Notes under the pieces: model-generated
What the model was told of the DNA's origin: nothing
The model's database searches: none
What the model saw: only the letters and a program-made list of their open reading frames with translations
Shown here: positions 27,296 to 54,561 of the stretch, piece after piece
Numbering within the stretch: position 1 is the first letter of the stretch
Layout of the letters: the number at the start of each line of letters is the position of its first letter
Assembly: GCA_045863235.1 (NCBI GenBank)
Contig: BTUM01000054.1
Coordinates: 1-54,729, forward strand
Direction: 5' to 3'
DNA length: 54,729 nt
Origin: Candidatus Xenobia bacterium
GTDB lineage: Bacteria > Vulcanimicrobiota > Xenobia > Xenobiales > QWHO01
Made by a program: the position numbers and the translations under genes

Positions 27296-28264
27296 ATGGC
27301 CCATCCCGCCCTCGAGGCCGTCCCCCTTTCCGAGCAACTGGGGGTGACACTGTCTGGTTCGGGCCCGCTCAGCCAGGTGCAAGAAGAGGAGGTCTGGAGC
27401 GGGCTCAAACAGCACGGCGCCGTGCTGCTGCGCGGCTTCAAGCCTTCCACCGAGGAGTTCAAAGCCTTCACCGACCGCCTCTGTCACGACTTCTCCGACT
27501 ACAAGGCCGGGGGCATGCGGATCGGGGCCCTGAACCGGCAGGCGGTCGACAACGACAAGACCTTGCTCACGGTCACGGGCCACACTCAGGGCTTTGCCAT
27601 GGCTCTGCACGGGGAGATGTACTACCTGCCCGTGCGCCCTCGCATTCTCTGGTTTTACTGCCAGCGCCCCCCGACCGATGGCGGGGGCCAGACCACCCTG
27701 GCCGACGGGGCCCGGCTGTGGGAGGCCTTCTCACCCGAGCTGAGGAGCTTTTTCGAGCAGAACCGGCTGGCCTACCATCGCAACCTGATGGATGGCGACT
27801 GGCAGACGACCTACCTGACCGAGGACTTCGAAGAAGCCCGCAAGCTGGCTGAGAGCCAGTGCGACTCGGTCATCGCCCATCCCGAGGAGCGGCGGCTCGA
27901 GACCCGCTCGGTGTTCGACGCCACCCTGACCGGGCCGGCCGGTGAGAAGATCTTCATCAACAACATGGCCACCGTCTGGATGGCCGAATGGGCTTTCGAG
28001 AGCGGCTGGATCAAGGAGAACGTGGGCTCCATCCAGGCCGCCACCTGTCCCATGGTGGTGCGCACTGAGCAGGGCGAGCGCATCAGCGCCAGCCTCATCG
28101 AAGAGTTGAACGAGACGGCCGAGAAGCTGACCGTGGAGGTGAACTGGCAGGAAGGGGACGTGGTCATGGTCGACAACGCCCGCATCATGCACGGCCGGCG
28201 CGAGGCGCGCGACAAGAACCGCTCCATCCTGATCCGGATGGGCGAGCCGCGGAGACCGCTGTGA
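27296..28264 (+). CDS. TauD/TfdA family Fe(II)/2-oxoglutarate dioxygenase
   Basis: HGAVLLRGF, LHGEMYY (HxE), GGQTTLADG, WQEGDVVMVDN.RIMHGR. Confidence 0.9.
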   Translation: MAHPALEAVPLSEQLGVTLSGSGPLSQVQEEEVWSGLKQHGAVLLRGFKPSTEEFKAFTDRLCHDFSDYKAGGMRIGALNRQAVDNDKTLLTVTGHTQGFAMALHGEMYYLPVRPRILWFYCQRPPTDGGGQTTLADGARLWEAFSPELRSFFEQNRLAYHRNLMDGDWQTTYLTEDFEEARKLAESQCDSVIAHPEERRLETRSVFDATLTGPAGEKIFINNMATVWMAEWAFESGWIKENVGSIQAATCPMVVRTEQGERISASLIEELNETAEKLTVEVNWQEGDVVMVDNARIMHGRREARDKNRSILIRMGEPRRPL

Positions 28265-29349
28265 AGACCGAGACGCGCTACATCGGAACCTCCCTCGACG
28301 GCCCCTGCCTCGAGCCCCCCGGCCTGAGCGTTCGAGGCTACGACCTCAACGAGATGATCGGCACGCTGTCGTTTGCTCAGGCGGTGCAACACCTGCTCAC
28401 CGGCGAGGTGGCCGACGGCACGGGGCTCGACGCCTACATGGCCGCCTGCTGCCGTGAAGTGCCTCCCGATCATCCCGCCCTGGACCTGATCGTGCGGGCC
28501 CGTCAGGCGGGCGCCTCCTGGCACGCGGCCACCATGGCAGGGCTGGCCGTGCAGCCCCCCGCACCGCCCTGCGAAGCTCCCGCCATGAGCGCGGACAACC
28601 TGGAGGCCGTGACCCTCCTGGGCGTGCTCCCCCGCTACGTGACGGCGGCCGTGCGCGGCCACGACCTGGTGCCCCCCGAGTCGGACCACCTCGACCAGAT
28701 GTACTGGCTGTGCACCGGTCGCCATCTGGCCGACCAGCGCCAGCGGCAGGTGCTCGACAACCTGATGGTCAGCTTCCACGCCGGTTTCGGGGTGGTACCC
28801 CCCAGCGTGCTCGTGCCCCGCGCCGCGGCCGGAACCGGGGTGCCCATGCACCAGGCCGTCTCAGCTGGTTTTGCCACCTGTGGAGCCATGCACACCGGGG
28901 CCTGCGAGTCCCACATGGCCATGATGGAAGGGATCTTCGCCCACCAGGACCCGGTCCAGGCGGCCGAGGAGATGCTCGAGACCACGCTGGCTCAGGGCAA
29001 GCGCATCCTGGGCTACGGCCATCCCTTCTTCCTGGCCGACCCGCGCGTGCCCCGCATTCGCTCGCTCTTTCGCGAGTACGGCTTCGAGTCTCGTTACCTC
29101 GAGGTCTACGACCGGTTGCAAGAGCTGGTCCGCCAACGGCTCAAGATCGAGCCCAACCTGGACGCCATCAACTCCACCACCCTGCTCAGCCTGGGCGTCA
29201 CCAGCGCCTGCGGCTCGGCCATCTTCCTGTGCTCGCGCCCGGCCGCCATGGTGGCCCACTTCATCGAGCGCCGGAACCGCCCCGCTTTCGGAACCACCAG
29301 CCCCAACGCCCGGCAGTGGTACGACAAGATCTCACTTGACTGGTTATAG
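28261..29349 (+). CDS. citrate synthase/citryl-CoA lyase-like protein
   Basis: VRGYDL, HAGFG..PS, HTGACE, GYGHP...DPR, PNLD. Confidence 0.8.
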   Translation: MKTETRYIGTSLDGPCLEPPGLSVRGYDLNEMIGTLSFAQAVQHLLTGEVADGTGLDAYMAACCREVPPDHPALDLIVRARQAGASWHAATMAGLAVQPPAPPCEAPAMSADNLEAVTLLGVLPRYVTAAVRGHDLVPPESDHLDQMYWLCTGRHLADQRQRQVLDNLMVSFHAGFGVVPPSVLVPRAAAGTGVPMHQAVSAGFATCGAMHTGACESHMAMMEGIFAHQDPVQAAEEMLETTLAQGKRILGYGHPFFLADPRVPRIRSLFREYGFESRYLEVYDRLQELVRQRLKIEPNLDAINSTTLLSLGVTSACGSAIFLCSRPAAMVAHFIERRNRPAFGTTSPNARQWYDKISLDWL

Positions 29350-29358: not shown

Positions 29359-30027
29359 ATGCGAATCGACATCCCCGTACCCCAGACCCCCGATCTCTAC
29401 GATCACTACACGGGGGCTTTCACCAAGCCCTGGGATGACATCCTGATCGACCGCGTGGTGGCCGAGTGGCAGCAGATGGGCCTCTCCGAAGGCACCCTGG
29501 TGGACGTGGGCACCGGCACGGCCGTGCTCATGATCCAGGCCGCCCGGCGGCCCGAGCTCCAAGGGCTCAAGATGCTCGGGTTGGACTTTTTCCCGAACAT
29601 GGTGGAGAAGGCCCGCGAGATGATCGCCGCTGCCGGCCTGACCGAGCGCATCGCGGTGCAGGTGGCCGATGCCCAGGCCACCGGCCTGCCCGATGGCTGC
29701 GCCGACCTCATCATGAGCCGGGCCACCATGCACCACCTGCGTGAGCCCGAAACGGCTTATCGCGAGATGCACCGCCTGCTCAAGCCCCACGGCGTGGCCG
29801 TCATCCACGACATGCGCCGCGATCCCGACCCGGAGGCCTTCGCCCAGTTCAACGAGCTGCGCCAGGCAGCCGGCATCGGGCCGACGATCCTCGAGCAGAA
29901 GTACACTCTGGCCGAGGTCAAGCAACAGGTCCACGCCGCCGGATTGGACACAAAAGCTGATGTCTACTGGGGCGAGAGCGGTCCTGCCGCTCTTGGATAT
30001 GAAGTGCGGATCCGGGGAGGGAAGTAG
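29359..30027 (+). CDS. class I SAM-dependent methyltransferase
   Basis: LVDVGTGTA, GLD...M, VADA, MHH...E..RLLKPHG; RBS aggagg. Confidence 0.9.
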   Translation: MRIDIPVPQTPDLYDHYTGAFTKPWDDILIDRVVAEWQQMGLSEGTLVDVGTGTAVLMIQAARRPELQGLKMLGLDFFPNMVEKAREMIAAAGLTERIAVQVADAQATGLPDGCADLIMSRATMHHLREPETAYREMHRLLKPHGVAVIHDMRRDPDPEAFAQFNELRQAAGIGPTILEQKYTLAEVKQQVHAAGLDTKADVYWGESGPAALGYEVRIRGGK

Positions 30028-30102: not shown

Positions 30103-30405
30103 ATGAAGTTCCTCGTTATCATGCGGCCCAACGGCAGCAACCACGGAATCGGCAAGGACGGCAAGAGCCACACCGAGGCCCTCAAGAAAGCCATCAAGTC
30201 CGGTGCTGTCGAGAGTGCCTACGCGTTCATCGGTGGCGGCGCGGCCTATGTGGTCAAAGCCAAGGACACTTACGAGCTGGCTGGCAAGGTCCGCTACAAT
30301 CCTCTGTTTGACAGCTGCTCCGTGGAAGTGATCCCGGTGGCTGACGCGGTCGACTTCCTGGAAGCCGCCCATCGCCAGACCGCCCCGGCCACGAAGAAGA
30401 AGTAA
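30103..30405 (+). CDS. small ferredoxin-like fold protein (DUF3303/muconolactone-isomerase-like)
   Basis: MKFLVI...YAFIGGG...NPLF...EVIPV; RBS aaggag. Confidence 0.55.
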   Translation: MKFLVIMRPNGSNHGIGKDGKSHTEALKKAIKSGAVESAYAFIGGGAAYVVKAKDTYELAGKVRYNPLFDSCSVEVIPVADAVDFLEAAHRQTAPATKKK

Positions 30406-37209: not shown

Positions 37210-37619
37210 GCTCTGCACCTGTTCGTCCTGATTCTCAGGACTCTCGACGTCAGGACAAAGAGCTCCAGGTTCATCCTCGATTTCGCACACCCGTTCGTCC
37301 CCGCTGGGGACAAACTGTTGTTCGGTCCACCCGCCATAGGAGGAGCTACGCCCCGTCAGGGTGTTCCGGCTGCGCTCCTGGCCGCTCCTCTCCGTGTCAC
37401 AGGCTGTCTTCGCTTTTCGGCTTTAGTAATTTCGATTCCAGGGGTCCGTGACTAAACTATTTTAGGCGTTCGGCCCTGTTCGAGAAAATGATTTCTCCGT
37501 GCAGAGAGGAGCCGGTGAAGGTAGCAGCGAAAGGGGCGACCTTGCCGGCTAGAATCTAAGAATTCCGGCCTTTGCACTTCCTGGCGACGAGCCAGACCAA
37601 TCTGACCGGGGAGCTCATC

Positions 37620-39818
37620 ATGATTCACAGCACCGATACGAGAAGCAGCGCGGTTGCGGCCGCTCATTCCTGGAACGGCGAGACCGCCGCCAACGGCAAG
37701 AAGCCCGAGCGCGTCGACCAGTTCTACGCCGCCGACGTGTTCAGCATCGGGGAGATGCGCCAGCGTCTGCCCAAGAACGTATTCAAGAAATTCATGAGCA
37801 CCTTCGAGTCGGGTCACCCGCTGTCGAGCGACGTCGCCGACGTGATCGCCTCGGCCATGAAAGACTGGGCTATCGAGAACGGGGCCACGCACTACACCCA
37901 CTGGTTCCAGCCCCTGACCGGCAGCACGGCCGAAAAGCATGACAGCTTCATCGTGCCTGACTCTCATGGCGGGATGCACTTCAGCCTGAGCGGCTCGGAG
38001 CTGACCAAGGGCGAGCCGGATGCCTCCAGCTTCCCGTCGGGCGGCCTGCGGGCGACCTTCGAGGCCCGCGGCTACACCGCCTGGGATCCGACCAGCCCGG
38101 CTTTCTTGATGCGCGGGAAGAACCACGTGACGCTGGTGATCCCCACCGCCTTCGTCTCCTGGACCGGCCACGCGCTCGACCACAAGACCCCGCTGCTGCG
38201 CTCGATGGACGCGGTGTCGCACCACGCCATCCGCATCCTGAAGATGTTCGACGCCGCCGAAGGTGTCACCCGAGTGGTCACCACGCTGGGCTGCGAGCAG
38301 GAGTACTTCCTGGTGGACCGCCACCTTTACTATGCGCGGCCCGACCTCGTCACCTGCGAGCGCACCCTGTTCGGAGCCAAGCCGCCCAAGGGCCAGCAGA
38401 TGGAGGACCACTACTTCGGCTCCATCCCGCCCCGGGTGCTGGCCTTCATGGCCGAGGTCGAGCGCGAGCTCTACCGCGTCGGGGTGCCGGTCAAGACCCG
38501 CCACAACGAGGTGGCCCCGGGCCAGTTCGAGATCGCCCCGATCTTCGAGACCACCAACGTGGCCTGTGACCACCAGATGCTCACCATGGAGACGCTGCGT
38601 CGCGTGGCCCCGCGCTATGGGATGCAGGTGTTGCTGCACGAGAAGCCCTTCGCCGGGGTCAACGGCTCGGGCAAGCACAACAACTGGTCCATGGTCACCA
38701 ACAACGGCCACAACCTGCTCGACCCGCAGGACGACACCCATTCCAACACGCTGTTCCTGCTGTTCCTGTGCGCCGTGATCCGGGCGGTGGACATGCACGG
38801 AGACCTGCTGCGCTCCTCGGTGGCCAGTTCGGGCAACGACCATCGCCTGGGCGCCAACGAGGCGCCGCCCGCCATCATGTCGATCTTCCTGGGCGACATG
38901 CTGACCGACATCGTGGAGCAGCTCGAGAAGGGCACCAGCGCTCGCACCCTCAAGGGCGGCACGCTGGACCTGGGCTCCCGAACCCTGCCCCAGATCCCCC
39001 GCGACTCGGGCGACCGCAACCGCACCTCGCCTTTCGCCTTCACCGGCAACAAGTTCGAGTTCCGGGCGGTGGGCTCGTCGCAGTCGGTGGCCTGGCCCAA
39101 CACGGTCTTGAACACCATCGTGGCCGACTCGCTCAACCACATCGCCAACGAGCTCGAGAAGCGCTGCAAGAGCGATGCCTCCCCCAAGGCCAGGCGCGAG
39201 GCGGCTCAGAAGGTCATGCAGGAGATCATCCGCAAGCACAAGCGCATCATCTTCGGTGGCGACAACTACAGCGACGAGTGGCACGCCGAGGCCAAGAAGC
39301 GCGGGCTTCCCAACCTCAAGGACTGCACCACCGCCATCCCCGCTCTGGGGAGCGACAAGAACGTCAAGCTGTTCGAGAAGTTCAAGGTCCTGACGCGTGA
39401 AGAGGTCGAGAGCCGCGTGCACATCTTCATGGAGAAGTACGCCAAGGAGCTCTTGATCGAGTCCGAGGCCATGGTGCTGATCGGCCGCCAGAACATCCTG
39501 GGCGCCGCCCTGGCCCACCAGACGGCACTGGCCCACGCGGTCACAGCGGCCGAAGTGGCCGGGGTCAAGGCTCCCCAGCAGCGCAAGGCGCTCAAGGAGT
39601 TCGTGGACCTCGTCGAGCGCTACGTGCAGGCGCTGGACAAGCTCGACCGGGCCGACGACCATCACGAGCACGACCATCTCAAGTATGCCAGGTACATGAA
39701 GGAGAAGGTCCTCCCGCTCATGCAGGAAGTGCGCGCGCTGGCCGACGAGCTCGAGACCAGGGTCTCCTCCGACCTCTGGCCGCTTCCGTCCTATCGCGAG
39801 TTGCTCTTCGTGAAGTAG
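37620..39818 (+). CDS. glnN: glutamine synthetase type III
   Basis: [82 protein letters not shown]. Confidence 0.97.
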
Positions 39819-43823: not shown

Positions 43824-44420
43824 ATGGGAGGGCGTGTGCTTCGAGGGCCCAAGGTCGAAGCGCGACTCTACACATGGGATCCCGACCGGAGTTCCCTGCG
43901 CTGGGATGGCCCCGTCTACACCGACGACGGCGAGCCGGTCACGGTGTATAACGGCTGGGACCTGGAACCGAGTGTTCAACTCAACCTCATGCAGGAGCGC
44001 AAGGGGCGGCTCACGGACGTGCTCTACTTCCTGGGGCTGAAATTGTTCGTGTCGGAACGCGCCGCGGAGGTCATGCTCGCCAACAGGCCCAGGGGGGTCA
44101 CGGTGCACATGCTGAACCTGCGCCACCGCGACGGCACGCTGCTGAGCGAATACTTCTGGCTGAACGTCCACACCCTGGCGGAACTGCTCGATCGTGAGCG
44201 GTCCGCATTCCGAGAGTGGGAGGTCGGTCGCGGGATCAGTCACATCAGTCACATCGACCGGCTGCACCTGCTCGAGGAGAACATCCCCGACGAGGACCTC
44301 TTCGTGTTCAGGGAGACTGCGCAGGTCGTGTTCTCCTCGCGCCTCGTCAGCGCCGTGACGAGTGCCCGGCTGACGGGCATCAAGTTCGAGCCCATCGGCG
44401 AGGGATACCGGTTTCCGTAG
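43824..44420 (+). CDS. Imm11/DUF1629-like immunity protein
   Basis: LFVSER, YFWLNV...LDRERS, DLFVF, VFSSRL...LTGIKFEPI. Confidence 0.7.
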   Translation: MGGRVLRGPKVEARLYTWDPDRSSLRWDGPVYTDDGEPVTVYNGWDLEPSVQLNLMQERKGRLTDVLYFLGLKLFVSERAAEVMLANRPRGVTVHMLNLRHRDGTLLSEYFWLNVHTLAELLDRERSAFREWEVGRGISHISHIDRLHLLEENIPDEDLFVFRETAQVVFSSRLVSAVTSARLTGIKFEPIGEGYRFP

Positions 44421-44496
44421 CGTGCGATGGGGATCGACTGCAATCTCCTCGCCCGCCTGACCGCGGGGTTGACTGAGGCCCCGATCGACGACTGAG

Positions 44497-45075
44497 TTAG
44501 CCCAGCATCTCCTCCACGTCCAGCGGAGCGGCCGTAAGGGCGCAGGGGGTCACGGTCTGGCCTGGCCGCAGAATCGTCAGGCTCTGATACTTCCAGCCGA
44601 AGAAACCCGAAGGGTCCTCGGCCGGTTCCCTGTAAACCTCGACCTGGCGGTCGGCTACGTTCAGGATCCAGTAGTCGGGGATTTGAGCTCGGGCGTACAG
44701 GCTCGCCTTCTCGGTGCGATCATAGGCCAGAGAGGTGTTGGCCACCTCGATGACCAGCGGCGCCCAGCAGGGTTGACGCTGGCCCATGCGGGCTCCTTTC
44801 CGGGGCACCACGGTGAAGTCGGGCTCAGGCTCGCTGATCCCCGAAACCTCGAGAGGGAGTTGAACCCGGACGAAGTGATCCTTGCCAAATGCGATGACCA
44901 GCACCGTGGTCGTCGAGGCCACGGCGTCGCTGTGGGTCGGATTGTGTGCGCTCAAAGGAACGATGACCCCCTCGATCAGCTCGACACGCTCCCCCTCCCG
45001 GAGCACGCCGGTTTCGGCCATGCGGTTGTATTCGTCCACGGTGAATTGGCGCTGATGAACGTGCAGAAGCGTCAT
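44497..45075 (-). CDS. Uma2 family endonuclease
   Basis: FTVDEYNRM..G...ERVELIEG, SEPEPD, LVIEVANTSLAYDR..KASLYARAQIPDYWILN. Confidence 0.92.
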   Translation of the reverse strand: MTLLHVHQRQFTVDEYNRMAETGVLREGERVELIEGVIVPLSAHNPTHSDAVASTTTVLVIAFGKDHFVRVQLPLEVSGISEPEPDFTVVPRKGARMGQRQPCWAPLVIEVANTSLAYDRTEKASLYARAQIPDYWILNVADRQVEVYREPAEDPSGFFGWKYQSLTILRPGQTVTPCALTAAPLDVEEMLG

Positions 45076-45289
45076 GGGTAAAGGATAGCGCAGGCGGTCG
45101 GACGGCGCAAGGACGAGGTCCATCCCCATTCGCGCTGCCCGCGAAGCTCGACAGACCTGATGCCAGATTAAATGATCTGCTGTCCAGGGGGGCTTTGTTG
45201 CTCCCGGGCGCCCAGCGAACGTCGCCCGGTTCGTTCCCCTCGACCCTGCTGTAGCATGGTTTCGTGTCACCGAAAGACAGGAGGAAACC

Positions 45290-46252
45290 ATGACCGAACG
45301 GTTCGAGATTTTGCCAACGCGCTGGGGTGTGCTGGGCGCCCTGACGGGAGGGCTGGCGCTGGCGGGATTGCTGGCCTTCGTTCCCGAGTGGCGAAGCTAT
45401 CCGCTGTTACAGGTGTCGCTCCTGGTGGCGAGCGTCTGGGTCTTCGCAAGCCTTTACTACCCGCTCTGGCTGGTCATCGACCGCCAGGCCCGCAGCTTCA
45501 CCCTGGCCGGCCTGTTTGGGACCCGTTTTGCGGGCGCTCTGGATGAGGTCAGGCAGGTCACCCTGATTCCGGAGGTTCGCGGTGTGGGTCGCAATCGCAA
45601 GAAGGTCTTCCCGGTGGTGCTGGTGGCTGGTGGCTACACCTTCGAGGTGAGCGCTGACACGGATTACCTGGGTGCTCGTCGCCTCTCGGAAAGGCTGGCC
45701 GGTCCTCTGGGCGCAAGGATCCTCGACAGCGGAATGGGGGAAACCATTGTGCGCTCCGCGGGCACGTTGCAGCGGCGCTGGGTTCAGTCGGTGCCCGCCT
45801 CCGGGGAAGCGCTGCCGCCTGCTCCCGTGCGACTCAAAGTTTTGCGCCAGGGTGGCAAGCTGGCCGTGCGCCTGCCTGGCCAGCACCCCCTGTACTGGTC
45901 GCTGGCCATTTTGCTCGCCCTGGGAGCGACCGCGCTCCCGGTCTTCCTGTTGGGCAGCGATCTCACCGGGGTGCTGGCCGTTGCAGGCGGCATGGGTCTG
46001 GTGGTGCTGCTGGCGGCCGCCTGGGTTCTGGCTCCGCCCGTGGTGGAGGCGGCTCCCGGCCGACTGGCGGTCCGCTATCCGCTCGGCTTGCGCGATCACG
46101 TGGACCTCGACGGTCTGGAGGAGATCCGACTCGATCTTGAGCACGGCGGCTTGCTCTTGATCGGTGACGCGCAGCTGGTGCGCCTCTGGTCGCCGCTCGA
46201 AGAATACGAAGTCGACTGGCTCAAGCAAGCCATTGCCCGAGCAGTTGCCTGA
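45290..46252 (+). CDS. hypothetical membrane protein (two TM-pair plus soluble-domain units)
   Basis: RBS aggagg, 320 aa, two hydrophobic hairpins. Confidence 0.7.
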   Translation: MTERFEILPTRWGVLGALTGGLALAGLLAFVPEWRSYPLLQVSLLVASVWVFASLYYPLWLVIDRQARSFTLAGLFGTRFAGALDEVRQVTLIPEVRGVGRNRKKVFPVVLVAGGYTFEVSADTDYLGARRLSERLAGPLGARILDSGMGETIVRSAGTLQRRWVQSVPASGEALPPAPVRLKVLRQGGKLAVRLPGQHPLYWSLAILLALGATALPVFLLGSDLTGVLAVAGGMGLVVLLAAAWVLAPPVVEAAPGRLAVRYPLGLRDHVDLDGLEEIRLDLEHGGLLLIGDAQLVRLWSPLEEYEVDWLKQAIARAVA

Positions 46253-46290
46253 AAACAGGTTTGCCGGCTTAGAATGCGAAGCCGGCCGCC

Positions 46291-47376
46291 GTGCTCAGCC
46301 AGCGTGGACTGATCCTTCTGGGACTGCTGACGGTCGGGGCGATCCTCGCCGACCGGCTCGAGGCGCCGCCATGGCTGGTGTTCATCCTGTCGGGGCTGTG
46401 CATGCTGCCTCTTGGCTCGGCCCTGGCCCGGGCCTCGGAAGATCTGGCCGAGCACATGGGCCCGGGCCCGGGGGCGTTGCTCAACGCCACTTTCGGCAAC
46501 GCCCCCGAGCTGGTGATCCTGTTTGTGGCCTTGAACAAAGGGCTGCTGGACGTGGTCAAGGCGACTTTGTCCGGCTCCATCCTGGCCAACCTGCTGCTGG
46601 TGCTGGGCCTGAGCGCCGTGGTGGGAGGGCTGCGCTACAAGTTTCTCAACCTGCACCCTCTGGGCGCCGCCGCCAACCTGGGCACCCTCACGCTGGTGGT
46701 GGCCGCCCTGCTCTTCCCGGCCGTCTTTGCGGCCCTGCCCCCACCGCTCGGGGCCGATCCCGTCAGCGAGCGCATCGAGGACCTCAGCCTGGGCACCGCG
46801 GCCACTCTGTTGCTGGTTTACGCCCTGAGCCTGATCTTCATGTTCCGCACCCACTCCGAGCAGCTCAAGGACAGCGTCAAGCTGAGCGTCAAGGTCGAGC
46901 TGGCCAAACTCCGCGCCCACGCCCCCCCGCGCAAGGCCATCGCCTGGATTGCCGGCTGCGTGGCTCTGGTGGTGATCCTGAGCGAGCAGCTCGTCGACGC
47001 CACCGACAGCCTGGTGGACGCCTATCACCTGCCCCCGCTCTTCATGGGCGTGGTCGGGCTGGCGCTGGTGGGCAACGCCGCCGATTACTCCTCGGCCATC
47101 CAGATGGCCTGGAAGAACAAGCTCGATCTGGCCTTCCGGGTGGCCACAGGGGCGGCTCTTCAGGTGGCTCTCTTCGTGGCCCCGGTGCTGGTGATCGCCA
47201 GCCGCTTCACGCCCCATCCGCTCAACTTGAACTTCTCGCCCCTGGAGGTGCTGTCGGTGGCCCTGGCGGTGGTGACCGTGACCGCCCACAGCTCCGACAA
47301 TGCCTTTACCTGGTATGAGGGAGCCCAACTGCTGGCTCTCTACGTGATCATCGGGCTGGCCTTCTTCTTCTACTGA
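46291..47376 (+). CDS. cax: calcium/proton exchanger (CaCA family)
   Basis: LLNATFGNAPEL, GSILANLLLVLG, LVGNAAD, ALQVALFVAP, WYEGAQLL. Confidence 0.92.
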   Translation: MLSQRGLILLGLLTVGAILADRLEAPPWLVFILSGLCMLPLGSALARASEDLAEHMGPGPGALLNATFGNAPELVILFVALNKGLLDVVKATLSGSILANLLLVLGLSAVVGGLRYKFLNLHPLGAAANLGTLTLVVAALLFPAVFAALPPPLGADPVSERIEDLSLGTAATLLLVYALSLIFMFRTHSEQLKDSVKLSVKVELAKLRAHAPPRKAIAWIAGCVALVVILSEQLVDATDSLVDAYHLPPLFMGVVGLALVGNAADYSSAIQMAWKNKLDLAFRVATGAALQVALFVAPVLVIASRFTPHPLNLNFSPLEVLSVALAVVTVTAHSSDNAFTWYEGAQLLALYVIIGLAFFFY

Positions 47377-47406
47377 GCGGCAGGCGGCGCGAAGCCTTTG
47401 CTTGAA

Positions 47407-47604
47407 ATGAAACCTATGGAAAAGGCCAGGATCGTCGTCGTGGATTCTTTCGAGGAAGCCGACCGACAGGATCGAGAGCTCTTCTGGTCAATGACCCCAC
47501 TGCAGCGCTGGGAGATCATGGAGGAGTTGCGCCGAAGGAATTACGGCGATGAGGCCGTTTCCTCCCGACTTCTCAGACTTCTTGAGGTTGCTGAACGACC
47601 ATGA
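47407..47604 (+). CDS. small hypothetical protein, putative partner of the downstream nucleotidyltransferase
   Basis: SFEEADRQD..FWSMTPLQRWEIMEELRR; overlaps the next gene; start uncertain. Confidence 0.65.
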   Translation: MKPMEKARIVVVDSFEEADRQDRELFWSMTPLQRWEIMEELRRRNYGDEAVSSRLLRLLEVAERP

Positions 47605-47995
47605 GGTCGATTATCTCCTGATTGGCGGCTATGCGGTGGGTTTCCATGGTTACCCGCGAGCGACAGGGGATATGGATATCTGGGTGGGCGTCTCGGAGAA
47701 AACCGCTCAGCGATTGGTCGAGGTGCTGACAGAGTTCGGCTTCTCCGAGGGAGTAACCCAAGAGCTTTTCTTGCGACCTCGCTGCATCGTTCGACTCGGA
47801 CATCCGCCCAACCGGCTTGAGGTGACCACCTTCATCGACGGAGTCGGATTCGAGGACTGCTATCAGCGTCGCATCATTGCCCACGCCGGAGAAGTTCCGG
47901 TGAACGTGATCGGCCTGGACGATCTTCGCAAGAACAAGAAGGCTTCCGGCAGGCACAAGGACCTGGCCGACCTGGAGAACCTTCCCGAATCCTGA
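47549..47995 (+). CDS. nucleotidyltransferase (DUF6036-like)
   Basis: YLLIGGYAVGFHGYPRATGDMDIWV, NKKASGRHKDLADLE. Confidence 0.85.
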   Translation: MRPFPPDFSDFLRLLNDHEVDYLLIGGYAVGFHGYPRATGDMDIWVGVSEKTAQRLVEVLTEFGFSEGVTQELFLRPRCIVRLGHPPNRLEVTTFIDGVGFEDCYQRRIIAHAGEVPVNVIGLDDLRKNKKASGRHKDLADLENLPES

Positions 47996-48001: not shown

Positions 48002-49021
48002 TCAGGGGGTCGGAATCGGCAGCGTGACCAGCCCGGGCGCCACCCGCTCCAGCGTGGGGCAGGCGCGCCGCAGCACCTGCTCACGCCGCGAGGGCCAGTC
48101 GAAGAGCGACTGGCGCTGCAGGGGCGGCCAGTAGTGGTTGGGCTCGCCCGGCCACCCCTCGCGCGGCCCCCCGTGGAACACCAGCCGCCAGTAAGAGCGC
48201 TCGGCCCCCTCGGGCACCGCCTGGGGCACCAGGCCGGTTTGCTCCACCACCTGGCGTTCACGCAGCGAGCAGGCGTGGCGCAACCAGGCCAGCTTCTGGT
48301 CGAAGCGCTTGAGCTGGCCCATGGCCAGGGTCAGAGCCACCGGGTGGGGGCGCAGCTTCAGGCCCACCGCGTTGCCCTGCCAGGACGTGCCGATCAGCTC
48401 GCGAGGCACCCGGTTGGGATGGCCCAGCAGCATCATGCGGTCGGCCAGCTCGGGGTCGTCGGTGCTGACCGCCCCCAGCTCTCCGCCCGAGATCAGCTTC
48501 TGGTAGCCCATCGACCAGCAGGTGACGGTGGCCTGGGCTCCCAGCGGCTGGCCGTCGTAAGTGGCGCCGTGGGCGTGGGAGGCGTCCGAGATGAGGGGCA
48601 GATCGGGGCAGGCAGCTCGAAGGGAGCGCCAGTCGGCCGGCACACCCCACGGATTGTGCACCAGCACCGCCTTCATGCGAGGAGTCCGGGCGCGCAAGAG
48701 ATCCGCCGCATCCATCGTCAGACTACCCTCGAGGCAGTCCACCGGCACCATCCGGGCCCCCAGGCTGGCTACGGCCGCCGCCATGCCATGAAAGCCATAG
48801 TCGCAGACGGCCACGTCGTCCCCGGCCTCGACTCCGCAGGCCCAGAGGGCAGCGTAGATCGAGGCGGTCCCGTTGCAGAAAGCCACCGCGTGGCGGTTTC
48901 CGGCAAACTTTGCAAAGCGCTTCTCGAAGCGGGTCAGGATGCCGCCGCTGGGCACCGAGAGGACGCCCGTGGCCAGCAGCCTGGCGACCTCCTCGATGTC
49001 CTCGGGGGTTACGTCCTGCAT
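48002..49021 (-). CDS. DegT/DnrJ/EryC1/StrS PLP aminotransferase
   Basis: FEKRFA, CNGTASI, SDASHAHGA, SMGYQKLISGGELG (catalytic Lys); ATG at 49021. Confidence 0.88.
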   Translation of the reverse strand: MQDVTPEDIEEVARLLATGVLSVPSGGILTRFEKRFAKFAGNRHAVAFCNGTASIYAALWACGVEAGDDVAVCDYGFHGMAAAVASLGARMVPVDCLEGSLTMDAADLLRARTPRMKAVLVHNPWGVPADWRSLRAACPDLPLISDASHAHGATYDGQPLGAQATVTCWSMGYQKLISGGELGAVSTDDPELADRMMLLGHPNRVPRELIGTSWQGNAVGLKLRPHPVALTLAMGQLKRFDQKLAWLRHACSLRERQVVEQTGLVPQAVPEGAERSYWRLVFHGGPREGWPGEPNHYWPPLQRQSLFDWPSRREQVLRRACPTLERVAPGLVTLPIPTP

Positions 49022-50028
49022 GCCTGATAGATCCGCTGGATCAGATCCACGGCCGCCAGAGCCTCCTCGGCGCTGGCTCCGCGCGAGCTCTCGCCCCGGG
49101 TGGTGGCCAGAAAGTCGGCCGCCTGCTGGCGGTGGGTGATGCCGTAGTAGGCCAGCGACGGCGGCGGAGGAGGAGCGTTGGCGGCCAGTTCGTCGAAGCG
49201 GGCCTGGCTGCTCTTCCACAGCTTGCGGCTCTGCAGGCGCAGGCGGTGGATCTTGTTGGGATAGGCCAGATCGTAGGCGATGGCCCCGTGGCTTCCGCAC
49301 AGCTCCACATAGCTGTCCCACAGCGAGCCGCTGGCCCCGTTCACGCTGAGCGCCCCCAGCGCTCCGCTCTCGAACGCGAGCGAGGCCACCAGGGCGTCCT
49401 CGGTCTCCATGTGCTGCGAGAAGGTGGTCATGCGGCCGGTTACCTGGCGCACCGGTCCGGCCATCCAGAGCAGCTGGTCGGCCACATGATAAGCCTGGTT
49501 GATCAGAACCGAGCCCCCCTCGGTGGCCCACTTGCCGCGCCAGCCGGCATAGTAGTCGGGGGCGCGGTAGCACTCCAGGTGGGCCCGCACCAGGTGGATC
49601 TGGCCCAGAGCCTCGGCCTGCACCAGCTCACGGATCAGCACCAGCGCCTCGTCGAAGCGGTGCTGCGAGACGGGAGCGGCCACGCGCTCTACCGCCCGGG
49701 CCCGCTCCACCACCTCGCGACCCTCCGCGACCTGGATCGAGAAGGGCTTCTCCACCAGCACGTGCTTGCCGGCCTGAAGGGCCTGGAGCGCGAGCGGGGC
49801 GTGCAGGTGGTGGGGCACGGCCAGGGCCACCAGCGAGACCTCGGGGTCGTTGAAGACCTCGGCCGGATCGGTGCTCGAGCGGGCAAAGCCAAAGCGCGCG
49901 GCCAGCTCGCGGGCCTGCTCCTCGACCAGGTCGCAGGCCCAGGCAAGCTTCACCCCCTCGAGCCGGGCGAAGGCGTCGGCGTGGCAGGGAGCCACCCGCC
50001 CGCAGCCCAGCAGGGCAAATCCCGTCAT
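49009..50028 (-). CDS. Gfo/Idh/MocA NAD-dependent oxidoreductase
   Basis: LLGCGRVA, VPHHLH, GKHVLVEKP, WRGKWATEGGSVLINQAYH; ATG at 50028. Confidence 0.9.
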   Translation of the reverse strand: MTGFALLGCGRVAPCHADAFARLEGVKLAWACDLVEEQARELAARFGFARSSTDPAEVFNDPEVSLVALAVPHHLHAPLALQALQAGKHVLVEKPFSIQVAEGREVVERARAVERVAAPVSQHRFDEALVLIRELVQAEALGQIHLVRAHLECYRAPDYYAGWRGKWATEGGSVLINQAYHVADQLLWMAGPVRQVTGRMTTFSQHMETEDALVASLAFESGALGALSVNGASGSLWDSYVELCGSHGAIAYDLAYPNKIHRLRLQSRKLWKSSQARFDELAANAPPPPPSLAYYGITHRQQAADFLATTRGESSRGASAEEALAAVDLIQRIYQACRT

Positions 50029-50795
50029 GACAAGAGCACCTCCGGATGCACCAGATCGATGCCCGCGGCCTGGAGCCGACCGGGCAGGGAAGGATCGCAC
50101 AATACGGCCAGCTCGGCCTCGCGCTGCTCGACGTAGGTCGAGCGCTCGCGCAGCGCCTGGTCGACGTAGCCCACGTGGCAGGCCAGCTCGATGGTGCCCT
50201 GGCCGCCCTTCAGCTCGCTCAGGGCAAGCTCCGCCGAGCGCACCAGGCTGGCCACGCTCAGCTCGCCTCCGAACCACTCCAGCACCGAGGCGTCGGCGCA
50301 GGTGACCCGGTGGCGCACCAGCTCGCGGGCCAGGATGTAGTGCCCGCTGCGGGCCGGCAGGCGCCAGCGCCGAGCCACCACGCAGTAAGCTTTGGTGACC
50401 ATGGGGTTGCGGTGCAGGTTGTGGTGCACGTCCAGGTGGGTGGGCCGGATGCCCATCCCCGTAAGCCGCTCGTACTGGGCCTGCCACTCGGACAGGATCT
50501 CGCGCGAGTCGAGCTGTCCCAGGTTGCGCCACGAACGCGGGAAGCGCCCGTCCGGACCCACCAGCGAGGGGATCTGCTCGGGAGGCAAGCAGGGCGTGCC
50601 GTCGGTGAGCTGCAGGTGGAGCCCGATGTGGCCCTCGATGGCACCGCCCATCCGGGCGGTCAGCTCGGCCGACTCCTGGCCGCACATCATGGCGCTGGTG
50701 GCGGTGACGCAACCTGCCTGGATGGACTGGATGATCCCCCGGCTCACCCCCTCGGTCAGCCCGAAGTCGTCTGAGACGATGTAGAGTCGCTTCAC
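50025..50795 (-). CDS. ChbG/HpnK (YdjC) family carbohydrate deacetylase
   Basis: SDDFGL, IGLHLQLTDG, PTHLDVHH, ELACHVG, REAELAVL. Confidence 0.9.
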   Translation of the reverse strand: MKRLYIVSDDFGLTEGVSRGIIQSIQAGCVTATSAMMCGQESAELTARMGGAIEGHIGLHLQLTDGTPCLPPEQIPSLVGPDGRFPRSWRNLGQLDSREILSEWQAQYERLTGMGIRPTHLDVHHNLHRNPMVTKAYCVVARRWRLPARSGHYILARELVRHRVTCADASVLEWFGGELSVASLVRSAELALSELKGGQGTIELACHVGYVDQALRERSTYVEQREAELAVLCDPSLPGRLQAAGIDLVHPEVLLS

Positions 50796-51790
50796 AGGGC
50801 GGCCTCCAGCAAAAAGCGCGCGGCCCGCTCGGCCCCGTCCACCCGGAAGGGCAGCTCGCGCCGGCCCCGCCAGGCCAGCGCCTCATCCAGCACGGCCGGG
50901 TCCAGGCGCCGCAGGCACCAGATGCCGCTCAGCCGGGCCAGGGCCTCGGCCCGCTCGAGCTGCTCGGCTCCGGATTGGGGGGTGTCAAGCGGAGCCAGGA
51001 TCACCGGCAGGCTGCTCCGGGCCAACGTGTAGGCCGTGTTGTAGCCGGCCCGGGCCACCACCAGCGAGGCTCCCCGCAGGCTCTGCTCGGCGGCGCCCTC
51101 GCTGAGCACCTCCAGGTCCGCCGACGAGACGAGCCTGGCATCGCTCAGGGGACCGAGCACCACGCGCAATCGGGCCCGCCCGCGCAAGCTGTCGCGCAGC
51201 CAGTCGAACAGCTCCGCCCCGCCGGCACCGGCTCCCGCCAGGGCCACCACCAGAGGCGGCTCGGAGGGTGGACCCGGGTCCTCGGGAGGGCGCGCGATCA
51301 CGCCGCAGTAGTCCCGCTGAGCGGGCAACAGCTCCAGGCCCGACTCGAACGGGTCGCACCAACCCGGATCGGTGTAGGCCAGGGCTGCCTGATAGCGCGC
51401 CAGGGCGGCGCGCAAACGCGGATTGCGCGGACGGGTGCCGGGCGAAGCGTAGGGCAGGCCCCAGACGAACCGGACCCGGTCGTGGGCGAGCAGGCTGTCC
51501 ACCAGCTCGCCTTCCAGGCCCAGCGGCAGGTGATCCACCAGCACGCAGTCGGGATCCCAGCTGGCGATGGTCCTTTGCACCAGCGCCCGGCGCTCGGCCA
51601 GGTTCTCGCGCTGCACGGCCGAAGGCAGTTTCACCAGCTCCACCGCTCCGCGCGGGGTCAGGCCTTCGACCAGCCCGCTGGCCAGGAGCGCGCAGCGAGC
51701 CCCGGCTCGGGCGGCCGCCTCAGCGATGGCCAGGGCGCGCGAGACGTGGCCCAGCCCCAGCAGCACGTGCGCGTAGAAGAGCAATTTCAC
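50792..51790 (-). CDS. GT-B glycosyltransferase (GT28-C-like)
   Basis: LGLGHVSRALAIA, LVDHLPLGLEGEL, AGAGAGG, ARAGYNT, EQLERA. Confidence 0.82.
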   Translation of the reverse strand: MKLLFYAHVLLGLGHVSRALAIAEAAARAGARCALLASGLVEGLTPRGAVELVKLPSAVQRENLAERRALVQRTIASWDPDCVLVDHLPLGLEGELVDSLLAHDRVRFVWGLPYASPGTRPRNPRLRAALARYQAALAYTDPGWCDPFESGLELLPAQRDYCGVIARPPEDPGPPSEPPLVVALAGAGAGGAELFDWLRDSLRGRARLRVVLGPLSDARLVSSADLEVLSEGAAEQSLRGASLVVARAGYNTAYTLARSSLPVILAPLDTPQSGAEQLERAEALARLSGIWCLRRLDPAVLDEALAWRGRRELPFRVDGAERAARFLLEAAL

Positions 51791-52092
51791 ATTGCGACCG
51801 GATTGGCGCTCACCACGTCCTCGTAGTGCGAGTCCACGAACAGGGCCAGGTCGGCCACCGACAGGTCCTTGCGGAACTGGCCCTCCTGCACCAGCAAGAG
51901 CTCGTATCGCAGCTTGCGCCCCAGCTTCATGTCCAGGGCGGCCAGCAGCTCGAGCAGGTCGACCGAGGAGAAGCCCAGGTCAGCCGACAGGGTGCTGGCG
52001 GGCGTGAGGGGCTCTTCCAGCTCCCAGTCTCCGGTCATCTCGGTCAGGATGTCCAGGATGGAGCGCTGCAACTGGTCCTTGTCGGGTTTCAC
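51787..52092 (-). CDS. acyl carrier protein
   Basis: LSADLGFSSVDLLEL, SVADLALFV; acidic, 101 aa. Confidence 0.85.
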   Translation of the reverse strand: MKPDKDQLQRSILDILTEMTGDWELEEPLTPASTLSADLGFSSVDLLELLAALDMKLGRKLRYELLLVQEGQFRKDLSVADLALFVDSHYEDVVSANPVAM

Positions 52093-52143: not shown

Positions 52144-54561
52144 CTATCGAGACTGGACGACCCCGGGTCCGGGTTCCACCCGGACGTGGTCGGGCTGCAG
52201 GCTGACCTCCAGAGAGTCGAGCAGGGCCGGACCGTGGACGCGGGGCCGGCCCCCCTCGTCGGGCAAGAGCTCGATCTGATCCAGCTCGAGCCGGGCCCCG
52301 CGCTCGGCGGCCCAGTCCTGCACCGCCTCCTTGGCCGCGATCCAATCGGCCAGCGGCCAGCTGCCCCGCAAACGCTCGCGGGCGGTCAGGGCGCGGGCCA
52401 CCAGGGCCCGGCGCCAGATTCCCCCGGTGCTCTCCAGGTAGCCGGCCGGGAGCTGCAGGCGACGGCCCTCCTCGCACGCTTGCGACAGGCGGCGTCCCCG
52501 CTCGGGGTAGTGCAGCCAGTCATACAGGTGGGGCGGATAGACGTCCCACACGAAGGCGAAGCCCTGCATGCGCATGGCCACGGCCCCGGAGGCGTCGATC
52601 CAGTCCAGGTCGGCCGTTCCCGGGCTCTTGATCTGCAAACGGCAGGTCAGCATCGTGCGCGGGGGCGGGGGCGGACCAAACAGCTCCAGCCGCTCCACCG
52701 CCACCGGAAAGAGCCAGAAGCGGCGCTGGCTTTGCTGCAAGAGCCAGTAGGCGGCCAGGTGCCCGGCCCCGTCCAGCGTGTCGGCCGGCAAGAGCCAGGG
52801 CTCGTGGTGGCTGAACGGCACTCGCACCTCCACCTCGATCCCCTGGCTGGTGGCCGCCCGAGCCTGCCACAGCGAGAGCAGACCCTCGCCGTGAAAGAGC
52901 GACTCGTTGTAAGCGCGGGCCTCGAGCTGCACGGGCAGGGGCTGCCCGGGAAGCTCCGGCAGGGCGGCCGGCGGCTCGGGGAAGCCGGCCGCCAGCAACA
53001 CCTCGCAGCTGAACGAGAGCTGGTCTTGCTCGAGGATCTGGACGCTCACCCGGCCAGGGCCGCCGGATCGGGCCCGCACTTCGACCTGCAAACGGTCGTG
53101 GTCCAGGGCCAGCCAGCGCAGGCTGCGGGCGTTCTCCACCGCTACCGCGACCCCCCCCGCGAGCTGCACGGCGGCCTCGGCCGCCAGTTCCAGGGAGAAG
53201 CTGAAGGGAACCACCGGCAACCGACCCAGCCGGTGGTCGAGCAGAAAGCCTTGCCGCTCGGGCGAGAGCTCGATGCTGGCGCTCAGGCCGTCGGCCTCCA
53301 TCTGGCAAGACGTGAGCAGGGAGAGCGAGGGTGGCGGGGGGGGAGCCTGCTGCACGCCTCGGGCTGGCCCCTCGCAGAACAAGAAGGCGGCCACTTCCAG
53401 CAACTGGGCCACCTCCGAGCGTCCTTCGGCGGCCGTGGTCCAGGCGCTGTGGGGAAGCGAGCGCAAGGTGTCGCGGACGAAGCCGGCCAGCCTTCCCCCC
53501 GGACCCACCTCGATGAAGTGGCGGATTCCGTCTTGATGCATGCGCAGCAGGGTCTCGCGAAAGCGCACCGTGGTGGCCCACTGCTCGGCTGCCAGGGCCC
53601 GGATGGCCTCCGGGTCGTCGGGATAGGGCTCGGCCCGCGCGCAGGAGTAGACCGGGATCTGGGGAGTTGCCATGGGCAGGAGCGGATAGACCTGACTCTC
53701 CAGCTCGCGCGCCACCGGGGCGTACAGAGGCGTGTGGTAGGCGCGCCGAAAGGGCAGCCGAAAGGAGAAGGCCCCCCCCTGGGCCAGGCGGGCCTCGGCC
53801 GCCAGGATGGCCTGGCTCGTGCCGGCCAGCACCAGCTGGCGGGGGCAGTTGTCCAGGGCCACCCAGAGCTGGTCGCAGAAGCGCTCGAGGATCTCGCGAA
53901 CCAGCCCCCGGTCCTCGGTCGAGACGGCCAGGAAGTCGGCTTCGGGAGCGTTGCCCTGCGACTCGGCCTGGCGCCCGTGGTTGAACAGGTTATGGAGCAG
54001 CTCGAAGAGCTGTCGGCGGTCCTGGAAGGCCATGGCCCCCGCACAGATGAGGGCGGCGTTCTCGCCCGAGCTGGGCCCGGCCATAGCCGACACCTGCACC
54101 CCCAGCTCGCTCAGCGCCTGGGCCAGGGCCAGGCCCGTGGTGGTGCTCAGCACCCCCCCCAGATCGACCCCTGCCGGGCCGGCGTCGCTCTCCAGGAAGC
54201 GGGAGGGGCGGGGCTCGCCCCAGGCCTGGTCGAGCTCGTCGAACCAGGCAGCGACGCCGGGCAGCTCGCGCCGGGCGTCGGCCAGCATGCCGGCATACTC
54301 CGAGCCCTGGCCGGGAAAGAGGAAGGCCACCGGCTCGCCCCCGCGCTGCTCGTTCAGGTCGGCGAAGAAGATGCCCGAGCGGTGCCGCCAGCGGGGGGCC
54401 GGGCTCTCGGCCAGCCTCCTGGCGGCCAGGGCCAGCTTGCTGTCGAGCTCTTCCTGGCTGCGGGCCACCAGCGCCAGCCGGCAGGGCCCATCGGGGTCGA
54501 CGCTCAGGTGGGAGAGCAGGGAGTGGCGGTCAGCAGCTGACCAGGTGTAGAGCTGGTGCAT
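52144..54561 (-). CDS. PKS partner subunit: KS-AT linker, acyltransferase, dehydratase, partial phosphopantetheinyl-transferase-like domain
   Basis: RLALVA, FLFPGQGSEY, GPSSGE, AYHTP, FIEVGPG; DH LDHRLGRLPVVP and LDGAGH; WIAAKEAV...DEGGRP. Confidence 0.82.
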   Translation of the reverse strand: MHQLYTWSAADRHSLLSHLSVDPDGPCRLALVARSQEELDSKLALAARRLAESPAPRWRHRSGIFFADLNEQRGGEPVAFLFPGQGSEYAGMLADARRELPGVAAWFDELDQAWGEPRPSRFLESDAGPAGVDLGGVLSTTTGLALAQALSELGVQVSAMAGPSSGENAALICAGAMAFQDRRQLFELLHNLFNHGRQAESQGNAPEADFLAVSTEDRGLVREILERFCDQLWVALDNCPRQLVLAGTSQAILAAEARLAQGGAFSFRLPFRRAYHTPLYAPVARELESQVYPLLPMATPQIPVYSCARAEPYPDDPEAIRALAAEQWATTVRFRETLLRMHQDGIRHFIEVGPGGRLAGFVRDTLRSLPHSAWTTAAEGRSEVAQLLEVAAFLFCEGPARGVQQAPPPPPSLSLLTSCQMEADGLSASIELSPERQGFLLDHRLGRLPVVPFSFSLELAAEAAVQLAGGVAVAVENARSLRWLALDHDRLQVEVRARSGGPGRVSVQILEQDQLSFSCEVLLAAGFPEPPAALPELPGQPLPVQLEARAYNESLFHGEGLLSLWQARAATSQGIEVEVRVPFSHHEPWLLPADTLDGAGHLAAYWLLQQSQRRFWLFPVAVERLELFGPPPPPRTMLTCRLQIKSPGTADLDWIDASGAVAMRMQGFAFVWDVYPPHLYDWLHYPERGRRLSQACEEGRRLQLPAGYLESTGGIWRRALVARALTARERLRGSWPLADWIAAKEAVQDWAAERGARLELDQIELLPDEGGRPRVHGPALLDSLEVSLQPDHVRVEPGPGVVQSR

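Follow-up and report, generated by a model that had tools for sequence, protein, structure and literature searches.

Whether two convergent gene blocks on one contig of a Candidatus Xenobia bacterium (Vulcanimicrobiota) form a single pathway, and what that pathway would make, is the question raised by the stretch of DNA analyzed here (BTUM01000054.1; 54,729 nt, hereafter the window), which is the entire contig C54 of the 8.36 Mb genome under study (G000). The plus-strand block centers on a large polyketide synthase (PKS) with enoylreductase (ER), ketosynthase (KS), acyltransferase (AT), acyl carrier protein (ACP), and ketoreductase (KR) domains, and the minus-strand block is an operon headed by a protein with AT and dehydratase (DH) domains (Table 1). 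An original prediction, made from the letters of the window, had read the blocks as two halves of one pathway for a glycolipid carrying a free amino sugar, separated by glnN and later insertions. Judging from gene content and comparative genomics, both blocks very probably constitute one secondary-lipid cluster. For the product, we favor a long-chain polyketide glycolipid that is capped by a citrate-synthase-derived O-methyl-malate group and bears an amino sugar, a scheme that, taken whole, we hold tentatively and put a little short of an even chance.

Table 1. Features of the cluster and its surroundings in the window.
Feature	Position	Strand	Basis
Y2-type transposase fragment, left cluster edge, outside the pathway	26769..27350	-	PF04986 E 5e-10
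TauD-family Fe/2-oxoglutarate dioxygenase, AfcU-like	27296..28264	+	PF02668; HGE105, H299
Citrate-synthase-like enzyme, AfcS/BolR subfamily	28261..29349	+	PF00285
SAM methyltransferase, AfcT/BolS-like	29359..30027	+	35% full length, E 7e-45
DUF3303/muconolactone-isomerase-fold small protein	30103..30405	+	Atlas features 0.92-0.93, TM 0.8-0.85
Iterative PfaDA-type synthase ER-KS-AT-ACP-KR, 2230 aa	30517..37209	+	domain scans, motifs
Intervening non-pathway genes: glnN, SprT, HIT-PLD-helicase, Imm11, Uma2, strain-variable 1-kb ORF, cax, nucleotidyltransferase	37572..47995		
DegT-family PLP sugar aminotransferase, 339 aa, shortened C-terminus	48002..49021	-	PF01041
Gfo/Idh/MocA NAD-dependent sugar dehydrogenase	49009..50028	-	best PDB matches 3q2i/3q2k, E 7e-37
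YdjC/ChbG-family carbohydrate de-N-acetylase	50025..50795	-	PF04794 E 2e-52; DDFG, HL, HxDxHH motifs
GT-B glycosyltransferase, MurG/GT28-like	50792..51790	-	MurG-like E 5e-4; homologues with PF04101
Free-standing ACP; family fused to sulfotransferase in sulfo-type clusters	51787..52092	-	domain scans
KS-less second subunit: PfaB-like AT, DH, half PPTase remnant (about 52144-52490)	52144..54561	-	motifs, alignment
Palindromic intergenic repeat at contig end	54677..54729	.	identical to first 53 nt of C129

The strongest evidence for a single pathway comes from the arrangement of these genes in other genomes. Among 40 relatives searched, a full-length orthologue of the AT-DH protein was found in one (G004, of the same genus) and the ER region in two (G004 and G002). 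In G004, the halves lie on one contig, convergent and 2,189 nt apart, at 62–85% identity, with cax and two small open reading frames (ORFs) between them. A metagenome contig (L122) holds the DegT, TauD, DUF3303, PKS, and GT28 genes and a PLOD-type glycosyltransferase (GT) gene within 11.7 kb (34–57%), and in G109, a fragmented assembly of the same class as G000 (9% contamination), the Gfo, DegT, and ER genes lie in a row, with the PLOD-GT divergent from a KS-degenerate AT gene. The Polyangium jinanense locus L027 (genome G401) carries a degenerate-KS-AT-DH gene, ACP, GT4, and NodB deacetylase genes, and then the PKS, with the PLOD-GT about 16 kb farther. On plasmid pSC52_2 (CP049030.1) of the cultured Rhodobacteraceae bacterium SC52, the PKS, TauD (40%), PLOD-GT (43%), citrate synthase (CS; 29%), methyltransferase (MT; 38%), degenerate-KS-AT-DH-phosphopantetheinyl transferase (PPTase), and ACP (36%) genes form one operon, followed by an ABC exporter. 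The contiguity check proposed with the original prediction thus has an outcome, with genes of both halves found side by side in other genomes, and the proposed single pathway, interrupted by glnN and later insertions, gains support from the spacing in G004, the contiguous genes in L122, G109, and SC52, and the GC content at third codon positions (GC3). Four of the five foreign-looking intervening genes show lower GC3 than the cluster genes (SprT 0.63, nucleotidyltransferase 0.70, Uma2 0.74, HIT-helicase 0.77, and Imm11 0.84; cluster genes 0.85–0.92).

The KS phylogeny agrees with this grouping. In a FastTree analysis of 83 KS sequences (six of 89 loci were left out as too short or incomplete), with the C17 KS as outgroup to the ER-type family, the six PLOD-linked KSs grouped together with an SH-like support of 0.996, and the sulfatase-linked and ArsA types fell outside this clade. 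By sequence, this PLOD-linked PKS clade spans at least three phyla. Relatives of the first-subunit PKS were found in at least 505 stretches in genome_contigs, the closest among the matches listed being L023, titled Vulcanimicrobiota (70%). Homologues of the CS, GT28, and AT-DH-PPTase proteins (three JGI proteins) have the same longest-contig value (45,349) and may mark an additional locus.

Searches for additional loci were unsuccessful. The PLOD-GT was found in none of 51 other PKS-family genomes (of the 53 searched, G004 and G401 were the known carriers), in none of 250 further genomes of the phylum of G401, and in none of 341 genomes of the family of G446, a search run without a positive control. 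The DegT subfamily occurred in one of 389 genomes of the family of G406, the CS in three of 401 phylum genomes (all of the same genus), and GT28 gave three strong matches among 401, G000 included. The congener G001 (90% complete) showed no match to the ER-type PKS or the PLOD-GT, and viral contigs yielded no further loci. Two other arrangements were noted along the way. L143 (Streptomyces plasmid NZ_CP108735.1) is a glyco-variant outside the PLOD clade, with a two-subunit PKS in which the second KS is intact, followed by ACP, alpha/beta hydrolase, GT1, and methyltransferase genes; L135 (G401:C39:208000-222355), in Polyangium jinanense, has a PLOD-GT 5′ of an AT-ACP-KS-AT-DH PKS, a nonribosomal peptide synthetase (NRPS) with a thioesterase, methyltransferases, and TauD, suggesting a Pfa-PKS-NRPS hybrid.

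The cluster appears to be under constraint, with dN/dS ratios of 0.08–0.38 for all cluster genes tested (Nei-Gojobori method, against G004 and a close relative of G000, L121; rough values, the DNA being GC-rich). At least half of the sampled words of the window were present in public runs (six rows from four studies of sludge, wastewater, or digesters), one of which may be the source. Among RNA-run contigs, X3 and X8 match stretches of 44000–54729; X3 extends over the intervening genes too and has records of up to 140 kb, so its origin may be DNA.

The plus-strand synthase is borne out as originally described. Pfam and NCBIfam profile scans, the source of all domain calls on window proteins, identified ER (NMO/FabK-like), KS, AT, ACP, and KR, and gave no match for DH, PPTase, or thioesterase; the motifs are intact (KS DAAC/HGTGT/GHTK, AT GHSFG/AFH, ACP GVDSI, KR TGGARG/YxxxN). 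The protein matched TIGR02813 with an E-value of 2e-255, under the whole-protein cut-off (850 vs. 1010 bits). With the second subunit included, all six activities of Pfa-like lipid synthases (KS, ACP, KR, AT, DH, and ER) are encoded on PfaA-homologous multidomain proteins. The malonyl-binding Arg (Ser+25) is present in the AT of this PKS and in 74 of the 74 first-subunit ATs matched.

The AT of the second subunit is of another kind. It retains GxSxG and xAxH (as GPSSG and AYH) and lacks both the Arg at Ser+25 and the His of GHSxG, the Arg also being unconserved across 31 second-subunit ATs inspected by eye. PfaB, a terminal acyltransferase that moves long acyl chains, likewise retains GxSxG and xAxH without the malonyl Arg (PMC12895367). 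The second-subunit AT thus looks like a PfaB-like transfer enzyme, not a malonyl loader, and would provide a chain off-loading route that needs no thioesterase. The catalytic His and Asp of the DH are intact.

A working PPTase in the AT-DH-PPTase-like subunit first described was not confirmed. The C-terminal ~115 residues align with P0005, whose C-terminus is a complete Sfp-type PPTase (PF01648), over the first half of that domain only; P0005 was the most distant of five proteins returned among 7,992 candidates scored with query residues 400–805. The region ends ahead of the GxDxE and WxxKEA catalytic motifs, and its WIAAKEA pairs with the first-half GRIAAKDA rather than with the catalytic WxxKEA. 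GxDxE and the second PPTase half are missing from all four complete Vulcanimicrobiota-type copies (G000, G004, P0002, P0003) and present in P0005, L079, and L100. PF01648 had no match within the AT-DH gene, the C-terminal 178 aa had no match among PDB sequences, and a single-sequence AlphaFold model of the DH-PPTase part was unusable (pLDDT 33). A complete associated PPTase is usual, though not universal, in Pfa-like synthases; here there is a half domain, and the claim that the second subunit supplies the PPTase is not supported. This remnant is conserved (dN/dS 0.30–0.39), and our guess is that it could be a structural or ACP-binding piece. A single stand-alone PPTase was detected in the G000 genome, on contig C21.

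G000 also holds at least five more large KS-containing genes (contigs C17, C44, C40, C2, and C7), one of them PfaA-like with three ACPs, and all apparently served by that single PPTase; among these, only the C17 KS entered the tree. Pairing of the AT-DH protein with the other PKSs of G000 (C17, C40, C44, C2, and others) was not supported. The original prediction had raised the possibility that the AT-DH protein belongs with another KS gene beyond the contig end; a KS gene truncated there was rejected, since the end is an intergenic repeat and neither G004 nor L121 has a KS match upstream of AT-DH.

The minus-strand operon runs AT-DH, ACP, GT, YdjC, Gfo, and DegT, the ends of PKS and DegT lying 10,792 nt apart, and four of its five junctions overlap by 4–13 nt (with start positions corrected to 49021 for DegT and 50028 for Gfo). 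Both the mostly overlapping structure, some 11 kb off, and the families assigned to ACP, glycosyltransferase, YdjC, Gfo/Idh/MocA, and DegT were confirmed, the families by the domain scans. The GT-B protein had no Pfam match of its own, with PF04101 carried by six of 12 other homologues. The adjacent Gfo and DegT genes have intact cofactor motifs, as in C3 dehydrogenase/aminotransferase pairs of the WlbA-WlbC, GnnA-GnnB, and PctP-PctC type. The best PDB matches of Gfo are entries that we take to be the C3-dehydrogenase WlbA. In DegT, the Asp and the PLP-Lys are invariant in all 13 aligned sequences; the distances of the protein to perosamine synthase, AHBA synthase, and other enzymes are much the same (E about 1e-26), and its subfamily comprises about 79 proteins (43–100% identity, several phyla) among the matches listed.

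These amino-sugar genes are an accessory module. Gfo, DegT, YdjC, and GT28 are absent from the SC52 and Polyangium loci, and the cyanobacterium G805 carries a Gfo-DegT pair (46% and 54%) near GT4 genes and an unrelated NRPS cluster, which points to a mobile module; both observations count against the favored product. With the module absent from SC52 and Polyangium, it is the gene order that places an amino sugar on the lipid, so that in the free amino-sugar glycolipid first proposed the operon families hold, and the sugar becomes an addition inferred from position. The module sits behind a free ACP whose family is fused to a sulfotransferase in L024, suggesting tailoring on the free ACP; four more long ORFs start with the same ACP (second domain unscanned). 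The G805 locus itself (L130-L131, G805:C31:5000-45000) encodes NRPS A-KR and C-A-PCP-C-TauD, a terminal reductase, and a class III aminotransferase, flanked by the GT4 genes and Gfo-DegT.

The original prediction was incomplete in leaving unused the TauD, CS-like, and methyltransferase genes within its own stretch, and in missing a second glycosyltransferase. In G000, G004, and G002, the three genes lie 5′ of the PKS and share its strand; in SC52 they are found within the operon. The CS-like protein belongs to a distinct subfamily (47 matches at E ≤ 1e-30 from 1.84 billion representatives searched), in which all 12 aligned sequences keep H211, H254, and D301. A Pseudomonas protein of this subfamily, with CS fused to an acyl-CoA dehydrogenase, pointed the way to a Burkholderia cluster in which CS, MT, and TauD genes are neighbors; the Burkholderia record is not labelled afc and was assigned by gene content matching PMC12186527. 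Our CS-like protein is 32% identical to this afc-type CS over its full length (E 2e-49) and is its sole genome match at E ≤ 1e-6, and for each of the afc-type CS, MT, and TauD, the best match in G000 falls in the window. Methyltransferase matches at E ≤ 1e-20 were confined to four of 72,556 plasmid records, namely SC52 and three Burkholderia; the window methyltransferase is 35% identical to its Burkholderia afc-type counterpart, and TauD is 39% identical to its counterpart in L122. Genes like AfcS, AfcT, and AfcU, components of an O-methyl-malate module, occur together here. The DUF3303 gene lies directly 5′ of the PKS in G004, G002, G109, and L122 and is absent from SC52. Among the CS relatives, the P0142 cluster (430 members) consists of a 1000-aa acyl-CoA dehydrogenase-citrate synthase fusion in the Pseudomonas fragi group; its identity to the afc-type pair of Burkholderia is about 56%, and those genomes may hold an AFC-like cluster.

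The second glycosyltransferase lies beyond the end of the window. C129 is the sole contig starting with the terminal repeat, and its next 33 nt, unique in the genome, are found beyond position 54729 in a contig from run X4; L121 maps to both C129 and C54 on a single contig. C129 begins with a PLOD-type GT (PF25342) and a Wzx-like polysaccharide flippase (PF01943), genes that in G004 lie on the cluster contig, about 25 kb upstream. C129 is thus the probable next contig after C54, which would add a second glycosyltransferase and a flippase to the cluster. The L122 PLOD-GT resembles LH3 and mimivirus R699 (Atlas score 0.99 to PLOD GT clusters), and a DxxD-like motif is retained in all four aligned copies.

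Homology of these components suggests the following scheme, in which every step is inferred. The ER-KS-AT-ACP-KR protein would extend the chain iteratively with malonyl units, with DH acting in trans from the second subunit and the ACPs primed by the stand-alone PPTase encoded elsewhere. The PfaB-like AT would pass the finished chain to the free ACP or release it. TauD may hydroxylate carbon 2 of the acid end, after which oxidation would convert the 2-hydroxy acid to a 2-oxo acid, a candidate oxidase being absent from the cluster genes; the CS-like enzyme would then add acetyl-CoA and the methyltransferase O-methylate the result, like AfcS and AfcT in AFC-BC11. The PLOD-type and GT28-like transferases would place sugar(s) on chain hydroxyls, probably on the free ACP; Gfo and DegT would replace a sugar hydroxyl (probably at C3) with an amine, YdjC remove an N-acetyl group, and the Wzx-like protein export the product. 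Pactamycin offers a precedent for free-ACP glycosylation followed by an oxidoreductase and an aminotransferase (PMC9092360). The AFC-BC11 order, in which AfcU hydroxylates the carbon beside the terminal acid, AfcF oxidizes it, AfcS adds acetyl-CoA, and AfcT methylates, was itself proposed from mutants and labelling (PMC13614206).

Several findings weigh against this scheme. Its main gap is that an AfcF-like oxidase occurs in none of the clusters seen, the SC52 operon included; the best AfcF match in G000, on contig C138 at 27%, resembles a general FAD hydroxy-acid oxidase. TauD is only 27% identical to the Burkholderia afc-type enzyme (E 6e-19), and the TauD and CS orthologues are missing from G109. 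L121 shows glnN and then DNA matching contig C3, with no first-subunit PKS in the 21 kb examined, which means that the convergent arrangement can differ even between close relatives, and the C54-C129 join passes through a repeat. The product, transcription, and enzyme activities are likewise predictions from genes. The missing oxidase lends some weight to a different role for the CS-like enzyme within one pathway, whether forming a citryl/oxaloacetyl-derived starter loaded by the non-malonyl AT or condensing oxaloacetate onto C2 of an acyl thioester, following the logic of fungal alkylcitrates, with TauD supplying the hydroxyl for PLOD glycosylation. TauD does adjoin the PLOD-GT in SC52 and L122, and a Polyangium contig has the same AT type in the loading position of a modular PKS. 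In bolagladin biosynthesis, BolR forms citrate from oxaloacetate and acetyl-CoA in vitro, and a citryl-CoA starter has been proposed (PMC7756342). We consider this alternative rather unlikely, as domain scans of the window found no acyl-CoA ligase in the cluster for citrate activation, and the AFC-BC11 labelling and mutants favor late modification of the acid end (PMC13614206).

The accessory nature of the sugar genes leads to another alternative, in which the PKS makes an SC52-type capped glycolipid without an amino sugar, and Gfo, DegT, YdjC, GT28, and the flippase share the operon while producing a surface glycan or nucleotide sugar of their own. Undecaprenyl-linked glycans are the usual cargo of Wzx flippases, and this division of labor would account for the module being missing from SC52 and present beside an NRPS in G805; the DegT subfamily was also found in none of 50 other PKS-family genomes at E ≤ 1e-35 (without a positive control). 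The tight overlaps behind AT-DH, however, extend from ACP through GT28, YdjC, and Gfo to DegT, DegT or GT28 abuts the PKS in the distant loci G109 and L122, and in Polyangium a different GT and deacetylase pair occupies the same slot after ACP, leaving a separate glycan unlikely. Much less probable still is the pathway as first drawn, a plain amino-sugar glycolipid without a citrate-derived group and with a working PPTase in the second subunit: the operon structure and family assignments fit it, as does purifying selection on the half-PPTase region, but the catalytic half is absent from all four complete copies, and the TauD-CS-MT trio accompanies the PKS as described above. We give least credence, next to none, to a decaying relic in which the lost KS, half PPTase, and shortened DegT and GT reflect erosion rather than streamlining. 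Several proteins are indeed shorter than their homologues, a transposase fragment flanks the cluster, and G001 lacks matches; yet there are no frameshifts or stops, catalytic residues are intact, dN/dS is below 0.42 for every gene and domain tested, and the same truncations occur in G004 at about 70% identity.

Compared with known systems, the core of the cluster corresponds by sequence to the known fused-pfaDA secondary lipid synthases. Pfa-like secondary lipid synthases with fused pfaDA and pfaBC-PPTase were described by Shulse and Allen in 2011 (PMC3098273) and are called uncharacterized in PMC13291983; they share the ER-KS-AT-ACP-KR first subunit and the AT-DH-(PPTase) partner with the cluster here. 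Among the matches listed, 55 of these Pfa-like loci extend far enough, and in 51 of them the next gene gives a second KS match, whereas here the KS is deleted and the PPTase halved. With up to 10 kb of DNA on each side, TauD, CS, MT, GT28, YdjC, Gfo, and DegT were found in none of 79 such loci, and a sulfatase neighbor in 27 of 80, again among the matches listed. This sulfo-type branch (L024, L056, L065, L076, L051, L057, and L064, plus the 27 sulfatase-linked loci), with sulfatase, ACP-sulfotransferase, APS kinase, and TPR genes, is large and uncharacterized, occurs in Nevskiales, cyanobacteria, and Verrucomicrobia, and probably makes sulfated lipids. The ArsA/ArsD phenolic-lipid synthase (Type P, Beijerinckia indica copy) has the same first-subunit architecture (37% over about 1,960 aligned columns), but the ArsA KS sits in another clade, and ArsD, homologous to the DH region here, lacks an AT and carries a complete PPTase. 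Type P systems have Type III PKS genes between the FAS subunits; Beijerinckia has such KAS III-fold genes, whereas none turned up in the window scans or in the G004 and SC52 clusters.

The TauD, citrate synthase, and methyltransferase form an adjacent homologous trio in AFC-BC11/bolagladin systems (AfcU, AfcF, AfcS, and AfcT; BolR and BolS), where the chain derives from primary fatty acids rather than, as here, from a Pfa-like megasynthase. The cluster here lacks AfcF, the acyl-AMP ligase, and the peptide machinery, with sugars in place of the peptide, and the PLOD and GT28 profiles had no match in the afc-type locus. The early pactamycin pathway (PtmI ACP, PtmJ GT, PctP oxidoreductase, PctC aminotransferase, and PtmG) is parallel by gene function only, PtmG being a deacetylase like YdjC. 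In the present pathway, a long acyl chain would instead serve as acceptor, and no radical-SAM enzyme was found in linkage with it. The SC52 operon, for which the papers searched describe no product, is the nearest parallel, with seven homologous genes (29–52% identity) and a KS of the same clade, and differs in its full PPTase, its ABC exporter in place of the flippase, and its lack of the amino-sugar module and DUF3303. The heterocyst glycolipid (hgl) system is typified by the HglB reductive-release domain and KS-CLF (chain-length factor) subunits, and window domain scans found no such release domain in the cluster. In PMC3098273, hgl corresponds to Type F. No description of the gene set or product was found in searches of the open full-text literature, PMC11411415 included, in which most entries were judged by title and abstract opening; subscription papers, supplements, and MIBiG lay outside their scope.

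Possibly, then, though we regard it as appreciably less likely than the capped glycolipid itself, the cluster represents an undescribed class of lipid synthase, joining a PUFA-synthase-like megasynthase to AFC/bolagladin capping and a collagen-type (PLOD/LH3) glycosyltransferase. In these Vulcanimicrobiota, the product would be a two-headed lipid whose O-methyl-malate end is anionic and binds metal and whose (di)amino-sugar end is cationic, built on a dedicated tailoring ACP used elsewhere for sulfation. For Pfa-like secondary lipid synthases, very few products are known (PMC13291983), and the widespread fused pfaDA type is largely uncharacterized. The cluster marks out a rare subfamily that crosses phyla, has distinctive tailoring genes, and yields a concrete prediction of structure. 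The seven-gene core on a plasmid of the cultured SC52 would make this prediction testable. The cluster would also bear on the dispute over lipid capping by AfcS/BolR-type citrate synthases, which here would proceed without AfcF and with a megasynthase, and adds to the little-known chemistry of Vulcanimicrobiota.

The DNA around the pathway genes includes several features of its own. Between the halves, the low-GC3 HIT-PLD-helicase (ResIII-type) fusion (40309-43518) and SprT-like gene (39887-40495) are probably inserted defense genes, absent at this position in L121 and G004. A single-copy 1-kb piece (about 45120-46139), skipped in three of four runs, is a strain-variable insertion or deletion and carries (45126-46139) a 320-aa membrane-like ORF of no Pfam family. 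Left of the cluster, luciferase-like, acyltransferase-3, and radical-SAM genes were not counted as members, homologues of the first two being absent from the G004 neighborhood. The palindromic repeat at the contig end belongs to a family with 16 matches of at least 40 nt on eight contigs (also at window 3430-3623 and 8377-8430, and on C129, C113, C49, and C34, among others) that breaks the assembly, and a second repeat family forms the other contig end (positions 1-120). Elsewhere, the window encodes a STAND NTPase-TPR-winged-helix regulator (6002-8326) and type II secretion/type IV pilus-like genes (11183-16891), including T2SSF and a pilin with the N-methylation motif.

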